Source of the DNA: an uncultured bacterium
GTDB taxonomy: Bacteria > Patescibacteriota > Patescibacteriia > Magasanikbacterales > GWA2-37-8
Direction of reading: 5' to 3'
Length of the DNA: 64,000 nt
Assembly (NCBI GenBank): GCA_937903605.1
Contig: CALCZC010000025.1
Span: 206,618 to 270,617, forward strand
This document shows, in pieces, positions 9,400-55,665 of this stretch. The notes beneath the pieces were generated by a model. It was not told the DNA's origin and made no database searches. It was given only the letters and a program-made list of their open reading frames with translations. The first letter of the stretch is position 1, and the number at the start of each line of letters is the position of its first letter. A program made the position numbers and the translations under genes.

Positions 9400-10764
9400 T
9401 TAATAATCTCTCAACTTGGTGACAATATTCATGTTTTTTATTCTTTCCAAGGCCTTGGCTTCAATTTGACGGATACGTTCGCGAGTTACTCCGAATTCTT
9501 GTCCGACTTCTTCCAGTGTATGGGTTACCCCGTCGCTTAAACCAAAGCGCATTTCCAAAATTTTCTGTTCACGTGGTGCCAAATCTTTGATAGCACTTTT
9601 TACATAGTCGCGTAAAATTTGCAGCCCAGCAGATCTGTCCGGAGAAATATTTTTTACATCTTCAATAAAATCTTGTAAAGAAGAATTATCATCATCATCA
9701 CCGACAGATACTTCAAGAGATACAGTATCTTGAGAAATTTTGATAATATGATTGATTTTATCCACTTCTTCCCCCATTTCCGCCGCCAACTCCTCAGCGG
9801 TCGGATCACGTCCCAAATCTTGAAGTAATCGGCGTTGCACCTGTTGAAAACGATTGATAGTTTCCACCATATGCACCGGAATACGGATAGTACGCGATTG
9901 ATCAGCCAAAGCACGAGTGATAGCTTGGCGTATCCACCAAGTGGCGTAAGTGGAAAATTTATAACCTTTGCGATAATCAAATTTTTTAACCGCTCGAAAA
10001 AGCCCGATATTTCCTTCTTGAATCAAATCGAGCAATGATAGACTCTTACCGACAAATTTCTTGGCAATTGAAACTACCAAACGTAAATTCGCTTCAATCA
10101 ATTTTCTTTCAGCGGCTTTTTCTCCTTTTTCTTTTCTTTTGGCCAAAGAAACTTCTTCTTCGGTATTCAAAAGCGGAATTTTGCCGATTTCTCGTAAATA
10201 CATTTGAATAGAATCCGCAGATATTTGACCCAAATCAAATGGGGTAGCCATATCCGGTTGTTCTCCTTGAAACTCTTTTAATATTTCTTTGTGAGCTTCT
10301 CGGTTACCCAATAATCCTGTTTCATTTTCTACTAAAGAAAGACCGTTTTTTTCTATTAATTCCAGGAACCCTTCATACAAATCCAAATATCTCTCGGGTC
10401 TATTAAAAACAGTGTTTAATTCCACTTCTGTGATAAAACCCCTGCTTCTTCCTTTGTTTATCAAATTCCAAACTCTGTCTTCGCCAGGTTCTTTCACTTC
10501 TTCCAAAACAAAAGCGGGTTTGGTCTTTGCCTTGCTTTTTTTGACGATTTTAAAAACCTTTTTTTGTTTAATCGGTTTCTTGTTTTTTTTAAGTAAAACT
10601 TTTTTAAACGTTTTCTTTTTAGGTTTAACAATCATCTTTTTCTTTATCGGCTTAACAAGTTTTTTCTTAGCAACTTTCCTAGTCACACTTTTTTTCTTGA
10701 TAATCTTTACAACAATTTTCTTCGTCTTTTTGTTCTTTTTTTGTTTTATTCCGGATTTTTTCAT
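9400..10764 (-). CDS. rpoD: RNA polymerase sigma factor RpoD (sigma-70) with Lys-rich N-terminal extension
   Basis: Region 2 [13 protein letters not shown], region 4 helix-turn-helix; N-terminal ~90 aa is a K-rich low-complexity tail. Confidence 0.95.
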
Positions 10765-21393: not shown

Positions 21394-21422
21394 CTTGACA
21401 AAATCTTCAAAATATGCTATAC
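21394..21422 (+). promoter_or_regulatory. perfect sigma-70 promoter TTGACA-N17-TATACT driving the large ncRNA
   Basis: TTGACA 21394-21399, 17-nt spacer, TATACT 21417-21422. Confidence 0.7.
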
Positions 21423-21429
21423 TGTGCAG

Positions 21430-22262
21430 TCGCTCAAATTGACGAAAAGACCCCTGTGTCTTCAGTCAAATCGGCGAAAGTTCGTTTCAAAACACCAAAA
21501 CCCGCTCGCCAAGGAGGTTCAGATGAACCGTACGAGAGATCGACCGTAAATTTCCCGGTCCAAAACTGAGATCTTTTTTTTAAGAAAACGTCGCAGATCC
21601 AGTAGGACAAATCTCATCGGCAAAGTTCGGTTTTCCAGGACATGTTCCCGGAAGCCTTAACCTGAACCGCCCAATCGGCGCGCCAAACAGCGCAATAAAG
21701 CGCAGGAGGTGTAGGATGTCCAGCATCCGCGATGGTCCCAAGTAATACAATCGTAACTGAACAACCATCTACGAAAAAAGTTTTGATGTTCCGTTCCTCC
21801 CGCCGTCGCCGACGCCTAGAATGGCGCCCCGTGCCCCGGCTTTCGTGGCACTTTTCCGGCGGGTTAAACACGCGAAGGCTAAACGGCATGTCGACGAGGT
21901 TAGGGTCGAGAGATTTCGACCTGGGCTACGTTTTTTTGTACCTCGCGGCAAAGACCGTTTTGGCCCATATCCGGCGTCAGGTCAGCCTCTCTGTAACTTT
22001 TGGAAATGTGTTCCTATGTCCAAGTGACGAGGAGACACTTTCCACTTTCAAAAAAGTTAGAGAGGCTGACACGCCGAGCGAAAATTGCGGATAAACCGGA
22101 TCAGCTTAAAAAACCGGTGATCTCCGCACCAACGTCAAGGCGATTTCTAGGCTTCCGGATCGCCCACGGCTCATCTGCCGTGTACAGTGAAGTCACATTT
22201 TCCCCGGTCTGCGATCAACAACTGAGCGCTCAGTGTTGATTCGCAGCCGGGGCGTTTTTTTT
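21430..22262 (+). ncRNA. large (~0.83 kb) GC-rich structured non-coding RNA of unknown class, flanked by tRNA-Pro genes
   Basis: GC ~50% against ~33% background; only overlapping Arg-rich pseudo-ORFs on both strands; bounded by a consensus promoter and a strong terminator; many local and long-range helices; internal hairpin plus T8 at 21533-21580. Confidence 0.6.
22201..22262 (+). terminator. strong intrinsic terminator (~24-bp interrupted stem followed by T9)
   Basis: CCCCGGTCTGCGATCAACAACTGAGCG / CGCTCAGTGTTGATTCGCAGCCGGGG then CGTTTTTTTTT. Confidence 0.8.
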
Positions 22263-43957: not shown

Positions 43958-44434
43958 GATTTAAAGATTGAAAGATTTAAAGATTGTTAAATTGTGTAAC
44001 TATTTTTTGTAATGTAAATTATCCAACAAATAACTACGAAAATTCGATAAATGGGTAGAAATCTTGTATATTTCTTCAATTAAATTTTCTGCTGTTTTAT
44101 TTTCTATATAATTATTATCCAATAAAATATATAGAATCGTTCTGACTTCTCCAGCTGAACCTTTGGCAATATTTATAAAATTAGCAAATTCTTTATTTGA
44201 ACTTCTTTCAAAACCTTCAGCTATATTTAAAGAGATTGAATAGGTCGCTCTTTTTAATTGATCACAGATAGAATAGTCCTTTTTTAATTTTTGATTATCG
44301 TCAATCAACTTATAAATATTAGCAACAAATTTTCTTGAAATTTGCCAAATTGGAATATCTTCAAATTTTTTATACTGCATACCCTCCCTTATTAATTAAA
44401 TTTTTAATCTTTAAATCTTTCAATCTTTAAATCT
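43958..44434 (-). mobile_element. cassette with perfect ~29-bp inverted repeats bracketing a second four-helix-bundle protein gene
   Basis: GATTTAAAGATTGAAAGATTTAAAGATT at 43958-43987; its exact reverse complement AATCTTTAAATCTTTCAATCTTTAAATC at 44406-44434. Confidence 0.6.
44000..44380 (-). CDS. four helix bundle protein (TIGR02436; 23S rRNA IVS protein family), second copy
   Basis: 126 aa; ...ATYSISLNIAEGFER...GSAGEVRTILY... family signature. Confidence 0.8.
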   Translation of the reverse strand: MQYKKFEDIPIWQISRKFVANIYKLIDDNQKLKKDYSICDQLKRATYSISLNIAEGFERSSNKEFANFINIAKGSAGEVRTILYILLDNNYIENKTAENLIEEIYKISTHLSNFRSYLLDNLHYKK

Positions 44435-51180: not shown

Positions 51181-53643
51181 TTACAGGTATTCTAAGTATT
51201 TCTGCTCCAAACTGTCAATAAACCGACTTCTGGCTTGTTGTCGCGGACCGTAAGAGCTCAGATAATTATCGCTATAACTTAAATAAATATGTTTTTTTGC
51301 GCGAGTTAAGGCCACGTAAAATAAACGTTTTTCTTCTTCCAAATCACTTTTATAAGCCGGGAATTTGAATTCATTCATCCCGATAATAAATACATAATCA
51401 AATTCCAATCCTTTGGCTTGATGCACTGTAATAATCGGAGTCTTGCCGGATTCCAGTCCAAGAAAATCCAGATTTTTTGCCAAAGCAAAACGACCAACAA
51501 GTTCTTTCAATGCATTCTCACTATCTTTTTCAAAGTCGTCATAATATTTCAAAAAGTTCAATAATTTTTCCACATTTTTTATTTTTTCTCCGGTTTGATC
51601 ATTTTCTTCATAATATTTTTTCAAACCGGAATCTGTAAAAATAAATTCCACCGCTTTGTCCGGTCTAACATCGCGAACCGTTTTTTTCCAATTTTCCATT
51701 TTCAAAGCCAAAGCCAAAAATTTGTTGGCATATTCTTTGAAAAATTTTTCTCGTTCTTTGATATTTTTTTTCAAAATTTGTCCGAGCTTTAACAGTAAGT
51801 CTATAGTAGCCGCTACATCGTCATCTGCGCTATGCGTGGCAGAGCTCAAACCCAAGAGATTAGAAAGAGTCGTGAGTTTGTAATTTTCGCTTTGCAATAA
51901 ACGGCGACTCAAATCCAGGGTATCGTAAAATTCTTTTATTACTTTTTTGAGTCCCAGTCGTTTACAATTTTCCTCCATCATTTTCAAATCAAAATAAACA
52001 TTGTGTCCGACTACTGCGTCTGAACCGATAAATTCATTTATTTTTTGCAATACTGTTTTAGGATCTTGTCCGTGTTCACGTAAAAATTCATCGCTAAGTC
52101 CGTGCACGTCTTGAGAAGAACCGACCGGAACGGAATTTTTCAGATAAAAATGAAGTTTTTCTCCCGGTACACCGCTTTTTACTTCTTGAGCAAAAATCTG
52201 TACGATCTCATCACGCAATGGGTTGATACCCGTGGTTTCGGTATCTAACACCACCAAACGTCCTTTTTCCATTGAGACTAAAAGTTTTTCAAAAGGTTCG
52301 CTACGACCGAAATTTTCAAAAGACAAAAAATCACAAACTCGCAAACCAGAAGGAGAAATTTCTTCTGTCATTTTTTTGAAAGCCGGCGCAGTCATGATTT
52401 TCTCAGGTCTGACTGTCAATCGTGCTGCGCTTTCGGTATCAAATTTATTGAAAATTATTTTTATACAAGCAAGTAAATCTTTGATTTCCTGGCGACGAAA
52501 AAATCGGAATTTATCCACGGTAATAAATGGCTCGTTTTTTTCTTCAAATTTACTCACCGCTTCGCGGATAAGCTGGTGTCCGCGAGATAGTACCGCCACA
52601 CTCACCTGCGGCTCCTCTTGTCTTATCTTTTTGAGCTCTTCAATCACAAAACCGATTTCCTCGTTAAAATCAAAACCCCGCCAAACCGTAATACATTTTT
52701 CTTTACCTCCGTTATTTGGAGTAGTCAATTCACCGGTATGAGTTTTTTCAAAACTATTCAAAAAAGATTTAACTGCTAAAAGCAAATGCGGATTGAAGCG
52801 ATAGTTAACCGTCAGATAATGCTCCGTAACCGGCGCAAAATGAGATTTAAAAATTTGAGAAATAAAAGTAGGATTACTCCCGCGCCAAGAATAAATAGTT
52901 TGATCCAGATCGCCTATGAAAGCAATATTTTTATAAACCTTGGCCAGCTCTTTGACTACCAGATACTCGGACAAGTGCGTGTCTTGAAATTCATCCACTT
53001 GGATAAAACGATATCGAGAACTCCATTTTTGTTTACTTTTTTCTTCCAAATACAGAACTTTCAAAGTATTAACCACCAGCTCGTTGAAATCCAGAACATT
53101 CAAATCAGAAAGTTTTTGCAAATATTTATCTTTGATAATTTCTTCTTCTTTGTTTAGAGGTGTTTGTGCGGTTTTGCAACCGATGAGATTTTCCGTTTCC
53201 GCCAAACGATGACGATAAAGACGGTCAAACAATTTATCATTGCGCGGTTGTTTAAGTTCCGGATAATCATCCAAAATACTTTCGAAAATCTGCATTTGTT
53301 CTTCCTCGTCAATAACAGAAAAATCTCGACTCAACCCCAAAATTTCAGCTTCACTCTTGACCAGATTAGCGCAAAAACCATGAAAAGTTTTGACCGTCAG
53401 TTTTTCCCAAACTTCTTTTTCAGGTATCTGCGATTTTATCCGTTCTAGCATTTCCGTAGCTGCCTTGTTGGTAAATGTCAAACACAAAATCTCCTCGGGT
53501 TTTACCCCCTGTTTCAAAACAGAAAGCACTCGTTGCGCCAAAACAGTGGTTTTACCAGTACCAACCGGAGCGCAAACAAGATGGGCGCCAAAAACCGTAT
53601 CAATGATTTTTTGTTGTTCTTGATTAAAATTCATAAGTTTCAA
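51181..53643 (-). CDS. UvrD/Rep-family DNA helicase with embedded DnaQ-like DEDDh 3'-5' exonuclease domain
   Basis: N-terminal CAPVGTGKTT Walker A; exonuclease motifs VLDTETTG, GHNVYFDLKMM, HSADDDVAATIDLL (~aa 465-620); C-terminal UvrD motif VHQAKGLEFDYVFIIG. Confidence 0.75.
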   Translation of the reverse strand: MKLMNFNQEQQKIIDTVFGAHLVCAPVGTGKTTVLAQRVLSVLKQGVKPEEILCLTFTNKAATEMLERIKSQIPEKEVWEKLTVKTFHGFCANLVKSEAEILGLSRDFSVIDEEEQMQIFESILDDYPELKQPRNDKLFDRLYRHRLAETENLIGCKTAQTPLNKEEEIIKDKYLQKLSDLNVLDFNELVVNTLKVLYLEEKSKQKWSSRYRFIQVDEFQDTHLSEYLVVKELAKVYKNIAFIGDLDQTIYSWRGSNPTFISQIFKSHFAPVTEHYLTVNYRFNPHLLLAVKSFLNSFEKTHTGELTTPNNGGKEKCITVWRGFDFNEEIGFVIEELKKIRQEEPQVSVAVLSRGHQLIREAVSKFEEKNEPFITVDKFRFFRRQEIKDLLACIKIIFNKFDTESAARLTVRPEKIMTAPAFKKMTEEISPSGLRVCDFLSFENFGRSEPFEKLLVSMEKGRLVVLDTETTGINPLRDEIVQIFAQEVKSGVPGEKLHFYLKNSVPVGSSQDVHGLSDEFLREHGQDPKTVLQKINEFIGSDAVVGHNVYFDLKMMEENCKRLGLKKVIKEFYDTLDLSRRLLQSENYKLTTLSNLLGLSSATHSADDDVAATIDLLLKLGQILKKNIKEREKFFKEYANKFLALALKMENWKKTVRDVRPDKAVEFIFTDSGLKKYYEENDQTGEKIKNVEKLLNFLKYYDDFEKDSENALKELVGRFALAKNLDFLGLESGKTPIITVHQAKGLEFDYVFIIGMNEFKFPAYKSDLEEEKRLFYVALTRAKKHIYLSYSDNYLSSYGPRQQARSRFIDSLEQKYLEYL

Positions 53644-54388: not shown

Positions 54389-55177
54389 TTATTTCGGGAA
54401 ACCATTGGTTTCCCTTTTTTTTATCCAAAAAAATAGAAGTATGGAAAATATAATAAACGGAAGACTAAGCCATTGTCCGGCAGTCAAAATACCTTCCCAA
54501 GAAGTTTGATATTCTTTGAAAAATTCCAATAAGAATCGCGAAGAAAAATAAAGAAATAAAAATAAATTAAAAATTGAACCGGATCGCCAAGTTTTTGAAT
54601 ACTTTTGGTATACAATATACAAAATTACAAATAATATCCAAGCAACAAGCATTTCATAAAGTACTACCGGATGGCGCAAAAGCGGAAATTGTTCTGCGCG
54701 AGCAAAATAAACTCCCCAAGGAACAGATGTAATCCGACCCAAAATCTCAGAATTAAAGAAATTTCCTAAACGGATAAAACCGGCTAATAACGGAACAACC
54801 ACTACAAAAGTATCAGCAATATTAAAAAAAGATATTTTTTTATAATAGCCATAAATAATAACTGTCAAAATAATACCGATTGTCATCCCATGACTACTGA
54901 GTCCGCCGTGATTGATAAAAAATATTTCTATCGGATTTCGCCAATAATAAGAAAAATTATAAAACAAAATTTCGCCTATTCGCGCACCGAGAAGTCCGCC
55001 CAGGATAAGCCAAATACATAAATCCAAAGTTTGATCAGTAGTCCATTTTTTTGCTTTAAAAAGTTTTATCAAAACTAAAACTGCCAACAAAATCCCCAAA
55101 GCCAAAAAAATTCCGTACCAACGGATGGAGATAAAGTTTGATTGAAAGATTATTGGATTGAGATTATTGGTAAACAT
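54389..55177 (-). CDS. lgt: prolipoprotein diacylglyceryl transferase
   Basis: 262 aa polytopic protein; RHPVVLYEM matches the Lgt signature. Confidence 0.8.
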   Translation of the reverse strand: MFTNNLNPIIFQSNFISIRWYGIFLALGILLAVLVLIKLFKAKKWTTDQTLDLCIWLILGGLLGARIGEILFYNFSYYWRNPIEIFFINHGGLSSHGMTIGIILTVIIYGYYKKISFFNIADTFVVVVPLLAGFIRLGNFFNSEILGRITSVPWGVYFARAEQFPLLRHPVVLYEMLVAWILFVILYIVYQKYSKTWRSGSIFNLFLFLYFSSRFLLEFFKEYQTSWEGILTAGQWLSLPFIIFSILLFFWIKKRETNGFPK

Positions 55178-55225
55178 ACCTGGTTAGTATAACAGAAATC
55201 TACTTAATATTAAATATTGGATATT

Positions 55226-55253
55226 AAAAAAGACCTTTGAAAAGGTCTTTTTT
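55226..55253. terminator. bidirectional terminator AAAAAAGACCTTT-GAAA-AGGTCTTTTTT
   Basis: Perfect hairpin with A-run on one side and T-run on the other. Confidence 0.65.
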
Positions 55254-55258
55254 AATTT

Positions 55259-55390
55259 CTATTTTCCACAATCACATCCACAACCGCAAGTTTCTTCTTC
55301 TTTTTCTTCACATTTGCAGTCTGGACCACAGTCACAACCTTCTTTACCACATTCACAAGGTTCTTGTGGTTTTAATTCATCTAAGTTCAT
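55259..55390 (-). CDS. small cysteine-rich metallothionein-like protein (43 aa; absent from the ORF track)
   Basis: Minus-strand translation MNLDELKPQEPCECGKEGCDCGPDCKCEEKEEETCGCGCDCGK*; 12 Cys in CxC and CxCxC arrays; own consensus promoter and terminator. Confidence 0.45.
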   Translation of the reverse strand: MNLDELKPQEPCECGKEGCDCGPDCKCEEKEEETCGCGCDCGK

Positions 55391-55431
55391 AGTTTTTGTT
55401 TACGGCTACTAAAAGTAGCTACTCGGGGTAT

Positions 55432-55460
55432 ATTATAGCACATTTTAGCCTTTTTGTCAA
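55432..55460 (-). promoter_or_regulatory. perfect sigma-70 promoter TTGACA-N17-TATAAT (minus strand) for the Cys-rich small gene
   Basis: Reverse complement reads TTGACAAAAAGGCTAAAATGTGCTATAAT; a CCCCGC-TGA-GCGGGG hairpin sits immediately upstream. Confidence 0.6.
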
Positions 55461-55665
55461 CCCCGCTGAGCGGGGTAAGAATTTTGGCTAAAGAAAGAGA
55501 AAAATACTGTATTTATAAATTATAACTCTCTACTTTTTTTCTGTCACGCTTAGCGTGACAGTTTAAGAGAAGCGGGGTTATTAGATGCGCTCAGCGTATC
55601 AAGGGCTTAATTTGGCTAACTTTAGCCATTTTAGCTAACTTTAGCCTAATTAAATATTGAATACT

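Follow-up and report, generated by a model that had tools for sequence, protein, structure and literature searches.

A small cysteine-rich protein gene of one Magasanikbacteria subclade and its possible role as a metal-thiolate buffer

The DNA analysed here is a stretch of 64,000 nt of contig CALCZC010000025.1 (assembly GCA_937903605.1, an uncultured Magasanikbacterales bacterium; positions 206,618 to 270,617 of the forward strand), hereafter the window. On its minus strand it carries a 43-codon gene for a cysteine-rich peptide. Comparison with related loci securely identifies it as a genuine small-protein gene that is restricted to one lineage, forms a monocistronic unit and combines a consensus promoter with a conserved 5' hairpin. 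As to function, we favour with moderate confidence a cytosolic metal-thiolate buffer, whose Cys register would have converged on that of the vertebrate beta-domain and the fungal copper metallothionein. The unit consists of four features:

55259..55390, minus strand: coding sequence, ATG at 55390 and TAG at 55261-55259, 43 codons plus stop
55432..55460, minus strand: sigma-70-type promoter, -35 hexamer TTGACA at 55460-55455, spacer of 17 nt, extended -10 element TGcTATAAT at 55440-55432
55405..55419, minus strand: 5'-proximal stem-loop GCUACU-UUU-AGUAGC, within the 35-nt leader
55223..55256, minus strand: intrinsic terminator AAAAAAGACCTTTT-CAAAGGTCTTTTTT, stem GACCUUU/AAAGGUC, flanked by an A-run and a U-run

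The gene, its product and its family

The open reading frame (ORF) had been proposed in a sequence-only reading of the window, and both its limits (ATG at 55390 to TAG at 55259, minus strand) and its translation proved exact; the start is fixed at 55390 because an in-frame TAA stands 12 nt upstream. The product, MNLDELKPQEPCECGKEGCDCGPDCKCEEKEEETCGCGCDCGK, holds 10 Cys (23% of its 43 residues), not the 12 first counted, along with 13 Asp+Glu, 5 Lys and neither aromatic residues nor His. None of the other six-frame ORFs of at least 25 amino acids compared in the window (602 in all) is strongly Cys-rich. In the family, the cysteines fall into an N-terminal six-Cys block with the spacing C-x-C-x4-C-x-C-x3-C-x-C and a C-terminal block of 3-4 Cys, C-x-C-x-C(-x-C). 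An internal tandem duplication of 21 nt (55325-55365) corresponds to the modules CECGKEG/CDCGPD, and longer relatives carry one extra unit of this CxCG type. Module duplication is a common route of growth in metallothionein evolution. All family members begin with the invariant hexapeptide MN(L/F)DEL, after which the sequence varies; within the hexapeptide, codons have changed synonymously (AAC/AAT, GAT/GAC), which indicates selection on the residues themselves.

The gene had also been called unannotated. This holds in that no source names the protein or gives it a function, yet gene callers had predicted exactly this ORF on 12 public contigs. Word-indexed and profile searches contributed three more clusters at 77-79% identity, and a genome scan together with a probe carrying the invariant leader yielded two additional alleles. 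Diverged members of 51-55 amino acids were found directly upstream of lgt by a walk through Lgt homologues, at loci where Lgt identity is 68-71%, and a widened profile recovered these members, found by synteny, plus one more. The family totals 13 distinct alleles in seven protein clusters (5.8 billion proteins), ranges from 42 to 55 residues and from 8 to 12 Cys, and is distributed over a single subclade of Candidatus Magasanikbacteria within the Candidate Phyla Radiation (CPR)/Patescibacteria. When 1.84 billion representatives were searched exhaustively with a hidden Markov model (HMM), the first profile, built from four sequences, retrieved only the family's own two clusters and no match outside the family. 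Two of the loci, L023 and L024 (= L015), bear Gammaproteobacteria record titles that look wrong or like placeholders; their AtpD is ~91% identical to that of the window and their gene order is that of Magasanikbacteria.

Substitutions among the alleles are concentrated at third codon positions, with counts at positions 1/2/3 of 0/2/7 and 2/5/16 within the clade and of 7/6/22 and 11/10/25 on deep branches. For the ORF, the ratio of nonsynonymous to synonymous rates (dN/dS) is broadly ~0.1-0.4; it spans 0.06-0.66 in comparisons within the clade, where lgt has 0.11-0.22 and atpC 0.02-0.10, and 0.09-0.5 for deep branches. Indels among alleles are multiples of three, and either TAG or TAA serves as stop codon. 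Across six diverged lineages, seven Cys columns never change, although both TGT and TGC are in use; this holds even at saturation of the synonymous sites, and the G/P/D residues between these cysteines are conserved as well. Covariation was not found inside the ORF (RNAalifold covariation term -0.66 kcal/mol; 1/49 pairs compensated). From the third-position and dN/dS pattern, the in-frame indels and the lack of RNA covariation, it follows that the ORF is a protein-coding gene under purifying selection. The sequence-only reading had set out beforehand that conservation of nucleotide structure without conservation of the ORF would imply a small RNA (sRNA); the ORF turned out to be conserved as protein, and that outcome was not seen. 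Rfam searches of the locus and of the whole window gave nothing above threshold, and the sub-threshold sRNA matches were rejected as terminator look-alikes. An antisense ORF of 51 amino acids (55237-55392, plus strand) was likewise discarded, as the third positions of the sense frame coincide with the second positions of its codons and the alleles do not agree in its translation.

The transcription unit

The promoter scores 12/12 with a TG-extended -10 element and is the sole 12/12 site in the window (shuffle mean 0.17), as the perfect TTGACA-N17-TATAAT promoter described earlier at 55460-55432 had suggested. The -10 element is followed by the discriminator ATACCCC, and promoter spacing predicts a transcription start at ~55425/55424. 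A conserved 25-nt core, TGTGNTATAATATACCYCGAGTAGC, unique within the window, is matched exactly in 27 of the 31 loci fetched, including L027, a locus that has lost the ORF. The primary sigma factor RpoD is encoded in the window itself at 9400-10764, which fits a promoter of the sigma-70 type. In the alignment of the loci, the conserved intergenic block is sharply bounded, with the -35 hexamer at one end and the terminator at the other; the DNA on either side is diverged or replaced.

A hairpin of 5-7 bp is predicted at the same position of the leader in every folded variant, with differing stems:

Window, folded: GCUACU/AGUAGC
L028, folded: AGCCUA/UAGGCU
L029, folded: GCUACU/GGUAGU, with two G.U pairs
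L027, folded: UAGCUA/UAGCUA
L031, read off the sequence rather than folded separately: AGCCA/UGGCU

RNAalifold additionally reports one U-A to C-G double change in this hairpin, in two lineages. The stem changes that preserve G.U pairing favour an element acting at the level of RNA over a DNA operator. The corresponding palindrome, AGTAGCTACT, was considered as an operator and rejected: it occurs once in the window, and the G.U and compensatory changes in relatives keep the RNA hairpin while destroying the DNA palindrome. Between the stem-loop and the AUG the leader is an unstructured A-rich stretch, UAAACAAAAACU. This arrangement, with a hairpin near the 5' end and unpaired, A-rich sequence from there to the start codon, is the classic layout of 5' mRNA stabilisers in E. 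coli and B. subtilis, and by analogy the stem-loop probably protects the 5' end of this mRNA.

The ORF lacks a Shine-Dalgarno sequence, as had been noted before. The point is uninformative, as nearly all genes of the window are likewise devoid of one and have A/T-rich sequence before their start codons (GC content of the window, 35%); given this general lack, the missing Shine-Dalgarno sequence is no argument against translation. The one clear exception in the window is a 23S-rRNA-IVP-family gene at 44000-44380, which is preceded by AGGGAGGGT and may be a foreign acquisition.

The terminator claimed 3' of the ORF is present as a hairpin at 55256-55223, which a terminator scan detected and which shows up again at the 3' end when the transcript is folded. 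All lineages have a terminator behind the ORF, but its stem is of at least five kinds that are unrelated in sequence; the conserved feature is the predicted monocistronic architecture rather than the sequence of the terminator. Beyond it lies lgt (54389-55177, minus strand), which in all lineages has a conserved extended -10 element, TGTTATACT, at ~8 nt before its ATG (55186-55194, minus strand, in the window). This distance suggests that the lgt mRNA is leaderless or nearly so.

Candidate functions of the peptide

In the mechanism that we infer, from promoter strength and the role of the hairpin to metal binding and the choice of metal, transcription from the consensus sigma-70 promoter, which is probably very strong and for the most part constitutive, would yield a monocistronic mRNA of ~200 nt. 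This mRNA would begin with a short 5' stem-loop, continue in an A-rich leader devoid of a Shine-Dalgarno sequence and end at its terminator ahead of lgt, which would be served by a promoter of its own. The peptide of 42-55 residues, built from duplicated C-x-C-G modules and probably synthesized constitutively at high level, would then wrap Zn(II)/Cd(II) or Cu(I) in metal-thiolate clusters, with nine or ten thiolates that would suit ~3 divalent or ~6 Cu(I) ions.

Size, composition and Cys arrangement are those expected of such a protein. Family members have 42-55 amino acids, the short forms analysed contain 21-24% Cys and no Phe, Trp or Tyr, and His occurs in some of the longer members. All cysteines stand in C-x-C arrays that are conserved within the family. 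At the level of sequence, the family has every property that enters the operational definition of a metallothionein, namely low mass, ~15-30% Cys, few or no aromatic residues and conserved C-x-C, C-x-x-C or C-C motifs. For comparison with known metallothioneins we used sequences verified against entries of the PDB. The Cu(I)-metallothionein of N. crassa (1T2Y) and the vertebrate beta-domains (4MT2, 2MHU, 1M0J) are likewise small, lack aromatic residues and have all Cys in C-x-C; the nine to ten Cys of the family are comparable to the nine of the vertebrate beta-domain, and in place of the alpha-domain the family has its second block, C-x-C-x-C(-x-C). Against 1T2Y and the vertebrate beta-domains 4MT2 and 1M0J, whose spacing is C-x-C-x5-C-x-C-x3-C-x-C(-x2-C), the six-Cys block has x4 instead of x5 and is otherwise spaced alike. 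When PCECGKEG-CDCGPDCKC is aligned with the fish beta-domain (1M0J), PCECSKSGTCNCGGSCTC, the alignment beats 5000/5000 composition-preserving shuffles. A metal-free AF2 model made from the family alignment is disordered (mean pLDDT 58) and devoid of secondary structure. An apo-thionein should look like this, and nothing further can be read from the model.

Circumstantial support for a link to metals comes from the slot that the gene occupies. Whether atpC or tatD precedes it, which depends on the lineage, the peptide gene invariably has lgt as its immediate downstream neighbour. In distant Magasanikbacteria, where Lgt is 57-58% identical, the gene directly upstream of lgt encodes a ZIP metal permease, and at one such locus a gene for a Fur-family regulator stands just upstream of the ZIP gene; in L030 (2166-3771) the ZIP-family permease gene overlaps lgt. 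A metal-uptake module in the same position upstream of lgt hints that the peptide, too, may be concerned with metal. Next to lgt, all relatives share with the window a conserved gene for a UvrD-type helicase fused to an RNase T/DnaQ-like exonuclease domain (51181-53643, minus strand, 820 amino acids in the window), together with an Integrase-repeat (INT_rpt) protein.

Several results weigh against a metallothionein. The shuffle test establishes a likeness of pattern, from which neither common descent nor function follows, and homology was not detected in any of the databases searched: the peptide matches no Pfam family (the best, PF12749 or Metallothio_Euk, scores 7.5 bits, with E=5.3, where the cut-off is 22) and 0 NCBIfam families, a profile search of the PDB gives no metallothionein match, and a comparison with rat MT-2 by hhalign reaches a probability of only 35% over 13 columns. 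With 13 Asp+Glu and 5 Lys, the peptide also greatly exceeds classical metallothioneins in acidity. No ArsR/SmtB, CsoR, CopY or Fur regulator, metal pump or chaperone occurs among the scanned proteins of the window, which are those of housekeeping, envelope and ATP synthase genes, and metal regulators, pumps and chaperones were equally not found in the flanks of the relatives. The promoter has no recognisable metal-sensor operator, a Fur/Zur box was not found by eye, and the 17-nt spacer argues against control of the MerR type. Single cysteines of the conserved set can be lost, as in L022 (C25G) and in P0127, which has 8 Cys. Finally, the gene is dispensable in L027 (Lgt 74% identical), a lineage that has deleted the ORF.

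The metallothionein likeness asserted in the sequence-only reading therefore stands for composition and Cys pattern but not for homology to any known family. Two of the checks proposed with it were negative: HMM searches for SmtA/BmtA produced no Pfam or NCBIfam match, and an ArsR/SmtB-type neighbour is present neither in the window nor in the three genomic contexts of the relatives. A weak profile match in the PDB to an LDL-receptor module (E=1.6) was rejected as a chance hit through the shared string 'CDxGPDC'. Unlike vertebrate and fungal metallothioneins, the family is bacterial (CPR), without detectable homology to them, strongly acidic, and equipped with a Glu-rich linker or tail and the invariant MN(L/F)DEL; the strong acidity with these Glu-rich segments and the hexapeptide are unusual for a metallothionein. 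On present sequence evidence, the likeness to known metallothioneins is best read as convergent.

Among bacterial systems, SmtA/BmtA (PF02069) resembles the window peptide as a small Cys-rich bacterial protein of the cytosol that is presumed to buffer metal; the family was unlisted even at E<=10 in the Pfam search of the peptide. SmtA-type proteins use Cys and His ligands, adopt a zinc-finger-like fold and contain aromatic residues. The window peptide lacks these ligand and fold residues, having no His and no aromatics, and whereas smtA is paired with the ArsR-type repressor gene smtB, no such regulator was found in the window or the flanks of its relatives. MymT, a mycobacterial Cu(I) metallothionein of ~5 kDa, is lineage-restricted, carries Cys-x-Cys motifs, was missed by homology searches and is inducible by copper. 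The peptide resembles it as a lineage-restricted small Cys-x-Cys peptide, a likeness of description rather than of compared sequences; in contrast to MymT, nothing suggests that the present peptide is inducible. A Candidatus Magasanikbacteria protein has been matched in BLASTP/PSI-BLAST searches with the C-terminal motif of Drosophila MtnF (bioRxiv 10.1101/2020.06.25.172213). We considered it as a possible family member; no accession is given there and it could not be linked to the family.

We ranked four alternatives to the metal buffer, namely an encoded thiol pool, the precursor of a ribosomally synthesized and post-translationally modified peptide (RiPP), a function at the RNA level and a Cys-sensing leader peptide. 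The first would make the peptide an abundant encoded thiol pool that serves as redox buffer, persulfide/polysulfide carrier or Cys reserve, and we regard it as unlikely, though the most probable of the four. Such a pool would suit an anaerobic, genome-reduced CPR bacterium that putatively lacks low-molecular-weight thiols of the glutathione type. It agrees with a promoter of maximal predicted strength free of metal-sensor features, with the failure to find metal genes nearby and with the unusual acidity and Glu-rich linker or tail segments, and a bulk-thiol role could tolerate the flexible number of Cys. Seven cysteines are nevertheless invariant in position and spacing across saturated divergence, with conserved G/P/D residues between them, which points to a defined cluster geometry over bulk thiol content. 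A bolder form of the idea appears more doubtful still: rather than a classical thionein for metal detoxification, the peptide would be the main encoded low-molecular-weight thiol of the cell, a Cys/Glu-rich mini-protein massively and constitutively expressed in place of glutathione-type redox or sulfur-carrier chemistry. It would have arisen de novo by CxCG duplication in one Magasanikbacteria subclade, in the slot that holds the Fur-ZIP module for metal uptake in sister lineages.

The peptide could also be a RiPP precursor, with MN(L/F)DEL as leader and the Cys-rich part as core, for example of a thioether or thiooxazole metallophore. An invariant hexapeptide under residue-level selection, followed by variable sequence, is what recommends this idea. 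The surroundings of the gene make it very improbable: in its atpC-pep-lgt and tatD-pep-lgt contexts no radical-SAM, LanM, YcaO, MNIO, protease or exporter gene adjoins, and no maturase for the peptide was found near the gene among the scanned window proteins or in the relatives' flanks. The only radical-SAM protein of the window is a MiaB/RimO-type enzyme encoded 47 kb from the peptide gene. The unit is monocistronic with its own terminator, and the peptide itself offers hardly any Ser/Thr from which lanthionines could form and lacks both a signal peptide and a double-glycine site.

We attach equally little credence to an RNA as the functional product, either an sRNA or a dual-function transcript, with the ORF as a by-product or of secondary importance. 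Conservation is higher in the promoter and 5' leader than in the ORF, and in L027 the promoter, the 5' hairpin and the terminator have outlasted it (L027:2880-3000), with a predicted transcript of ~50 nt. Synonymous divergence (dS) of the ORF, at 0.2-1.0, lies below the 0.5-2.5 of neighbouring genes, and the transcript folds better than shuffles (z = -3.95), a score owed mostly to the terminator and the 5' hairpin. Against these observations stand the clear selection on protein in the ORF, which extends to deep branches, as well as the missing covariation within it and the absence of any Rfam family at threshold. A purely non-coding reading of the locus is essentially excluded; as L027 keeps promoter and hairpin without an ORF, the leader RNA itself may have an extra role.

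The least probable of the four, and one to which we give almost no weight, is a Cys-codon-rich leader peptide on which ribosomes would stall at low Cys-tRNA charging, so that the terminator lets transcription pass into lgt or not. The ORF is indeed short, has 10 Cys codons, ends 2 nt before the terminator hairpin and always stands directly upstream of lgt. Yet non-Cys residues and Cys spacing are conserved, unlike in attenuator leaders, no conserved alternative antiterminator pairing was found, lgt is no cysteine-biosynthesis gene and has its own conserved TGTTATACT -10 element, and L027 retains the terminator though the ORF is gone.

Upstream module, other features of the window and significance

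Between the promoter and the preceding gene, the window contains an accessory module that differs among lineages:

55461..55598, minus strand: upstream module of 138 bp, with a TTGA direct repeat at both flanks
55560-55542, minus strand: palindrome TGTCACGC-TAA-GCGTGACA, inside the module
55547-55519, minus strand: second promoter, scoring 11/12, whose -35 element is the right arm of the palindrome
55475-55461, minus strand: GC hairpin CCCCGC-TCA-GCGGGG, directly abutting the -35 element of the peptide promoter

The module holds three GC hairpins with a common core, CGCTNAGCG, which has five copies in the window against 0.28 expected, three of the five inside the module. It is present at loci of the window type and in L009, L010, L014, L023 and L026, and missing from L025, L012, L015, L016, L021, L022, L027 and L031. 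Missing as it is from most lineages, it can be no obligatory part of the transcription unit. The distant locus L028 has a shorter, two-hairpin module at the same place, with changes that preserve both dyads (TGTCACGC/GCGTGACA to GCCACGC/GCGTGGC, and CCCCGC/GCGGGG to GCCCGC/GCGGGC). We rejected a recent insertion resembling a miniature inverted-repeat transposable element as the origin of the module, which is single-copy in the window and found in shortened form even in L028. Nor is it a random insertion, with its three hairpins built on one core. It is an accessory element, possibly regulatory or of the repetitive extragenic palindromic (REP) kind.

The sequence-only reading had recorded both dyads and taken the inverted repeat as a possible operator. 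The GC hairpin is present at 55475-55461; the palindrome exists too, although at 55560-55542 (minus strand) and not at 55548-55568. As operators they are weakened by their absence from most lineages, but the recurrence of the dyads in L028 leaves room for a regulatory role in some of them.

The region around the module is repetitive. Short repeats of the GGCTAAAG/TTAGCC type occupy 55599-55660 (minus strand), between the atpC terminator and the peptide promoter; within them TRF finds a repeat of period 10 at 55611-55645 (3.6 copies, consensus TTTAGCTAAC), and similar TAGCCAAA/GGCTAA motifs occur upstream of the promoter in all lineages. Independent assemblies (L004, L005, L006, L013, L017 and L019) break close to or within the promoter, ~70-120 nt before the ATG of the peptide gene, probably as a result of polymorphism of the upstream module within populations. 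Contigs that start ~70 nt upstream of the ATG were considered as transcript ends, and assembly breaks at the polymorphic module were found the likelier explanation.

Far from the peptide gene, the plus strand at 21395-22230 carries an 11/12 sigma-70 promoter with TG (TTGACA-17-TATACT, 21395-21423), followed by ~800 nt of GC-rich DNA. This stretch has 43-59% GC against a background of 35% and only fragmented Arg-rich ORFs in all frames. It gave no Rfam match at E<0.01, and its minimum free energy is -286 kcal/mol (z = -7 versus shuffles). With tRNA-Pro(cgg) on one side and a peptidase U32 gene on the other, the stretch is a candidate for a non-coding RNA of large size and extensive structure.

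To our knowledge, bacterial metallothionein families are few, comprising the SmtA/BmtA type, MymT and a handful of others, and no metallothionein described for Patescibacteria/CPR was found in the literature searched. Little is known of how the mostly anaerobic CPR bacteria, with their tiny genomes, handle metals and thiol redox chemistry. The importance of the present gene is tempered by the small size of its family (seven clusters in 5.8 billion proteins) and by its dispensability in at least one lineage. Its transcription unit is a compact and well-delimited example of the expression signals of CPR bacteria, uniting a consensus sigma-70 promoter, a probable 5' stabiliser hairpin, a start codon that lacks a Shine-Dalgarno sequence and an intrinsic terminator, and may serve as a reference or as a synthetic part. 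If the peptide does bind metal, it would represent a new, independently evolved metallothionein family whose Cys register is convergent with the eukaryotic pattern, and it would offer a clean case for the reinvention of metal-thiolate clusters out of duplicated CxC modules.

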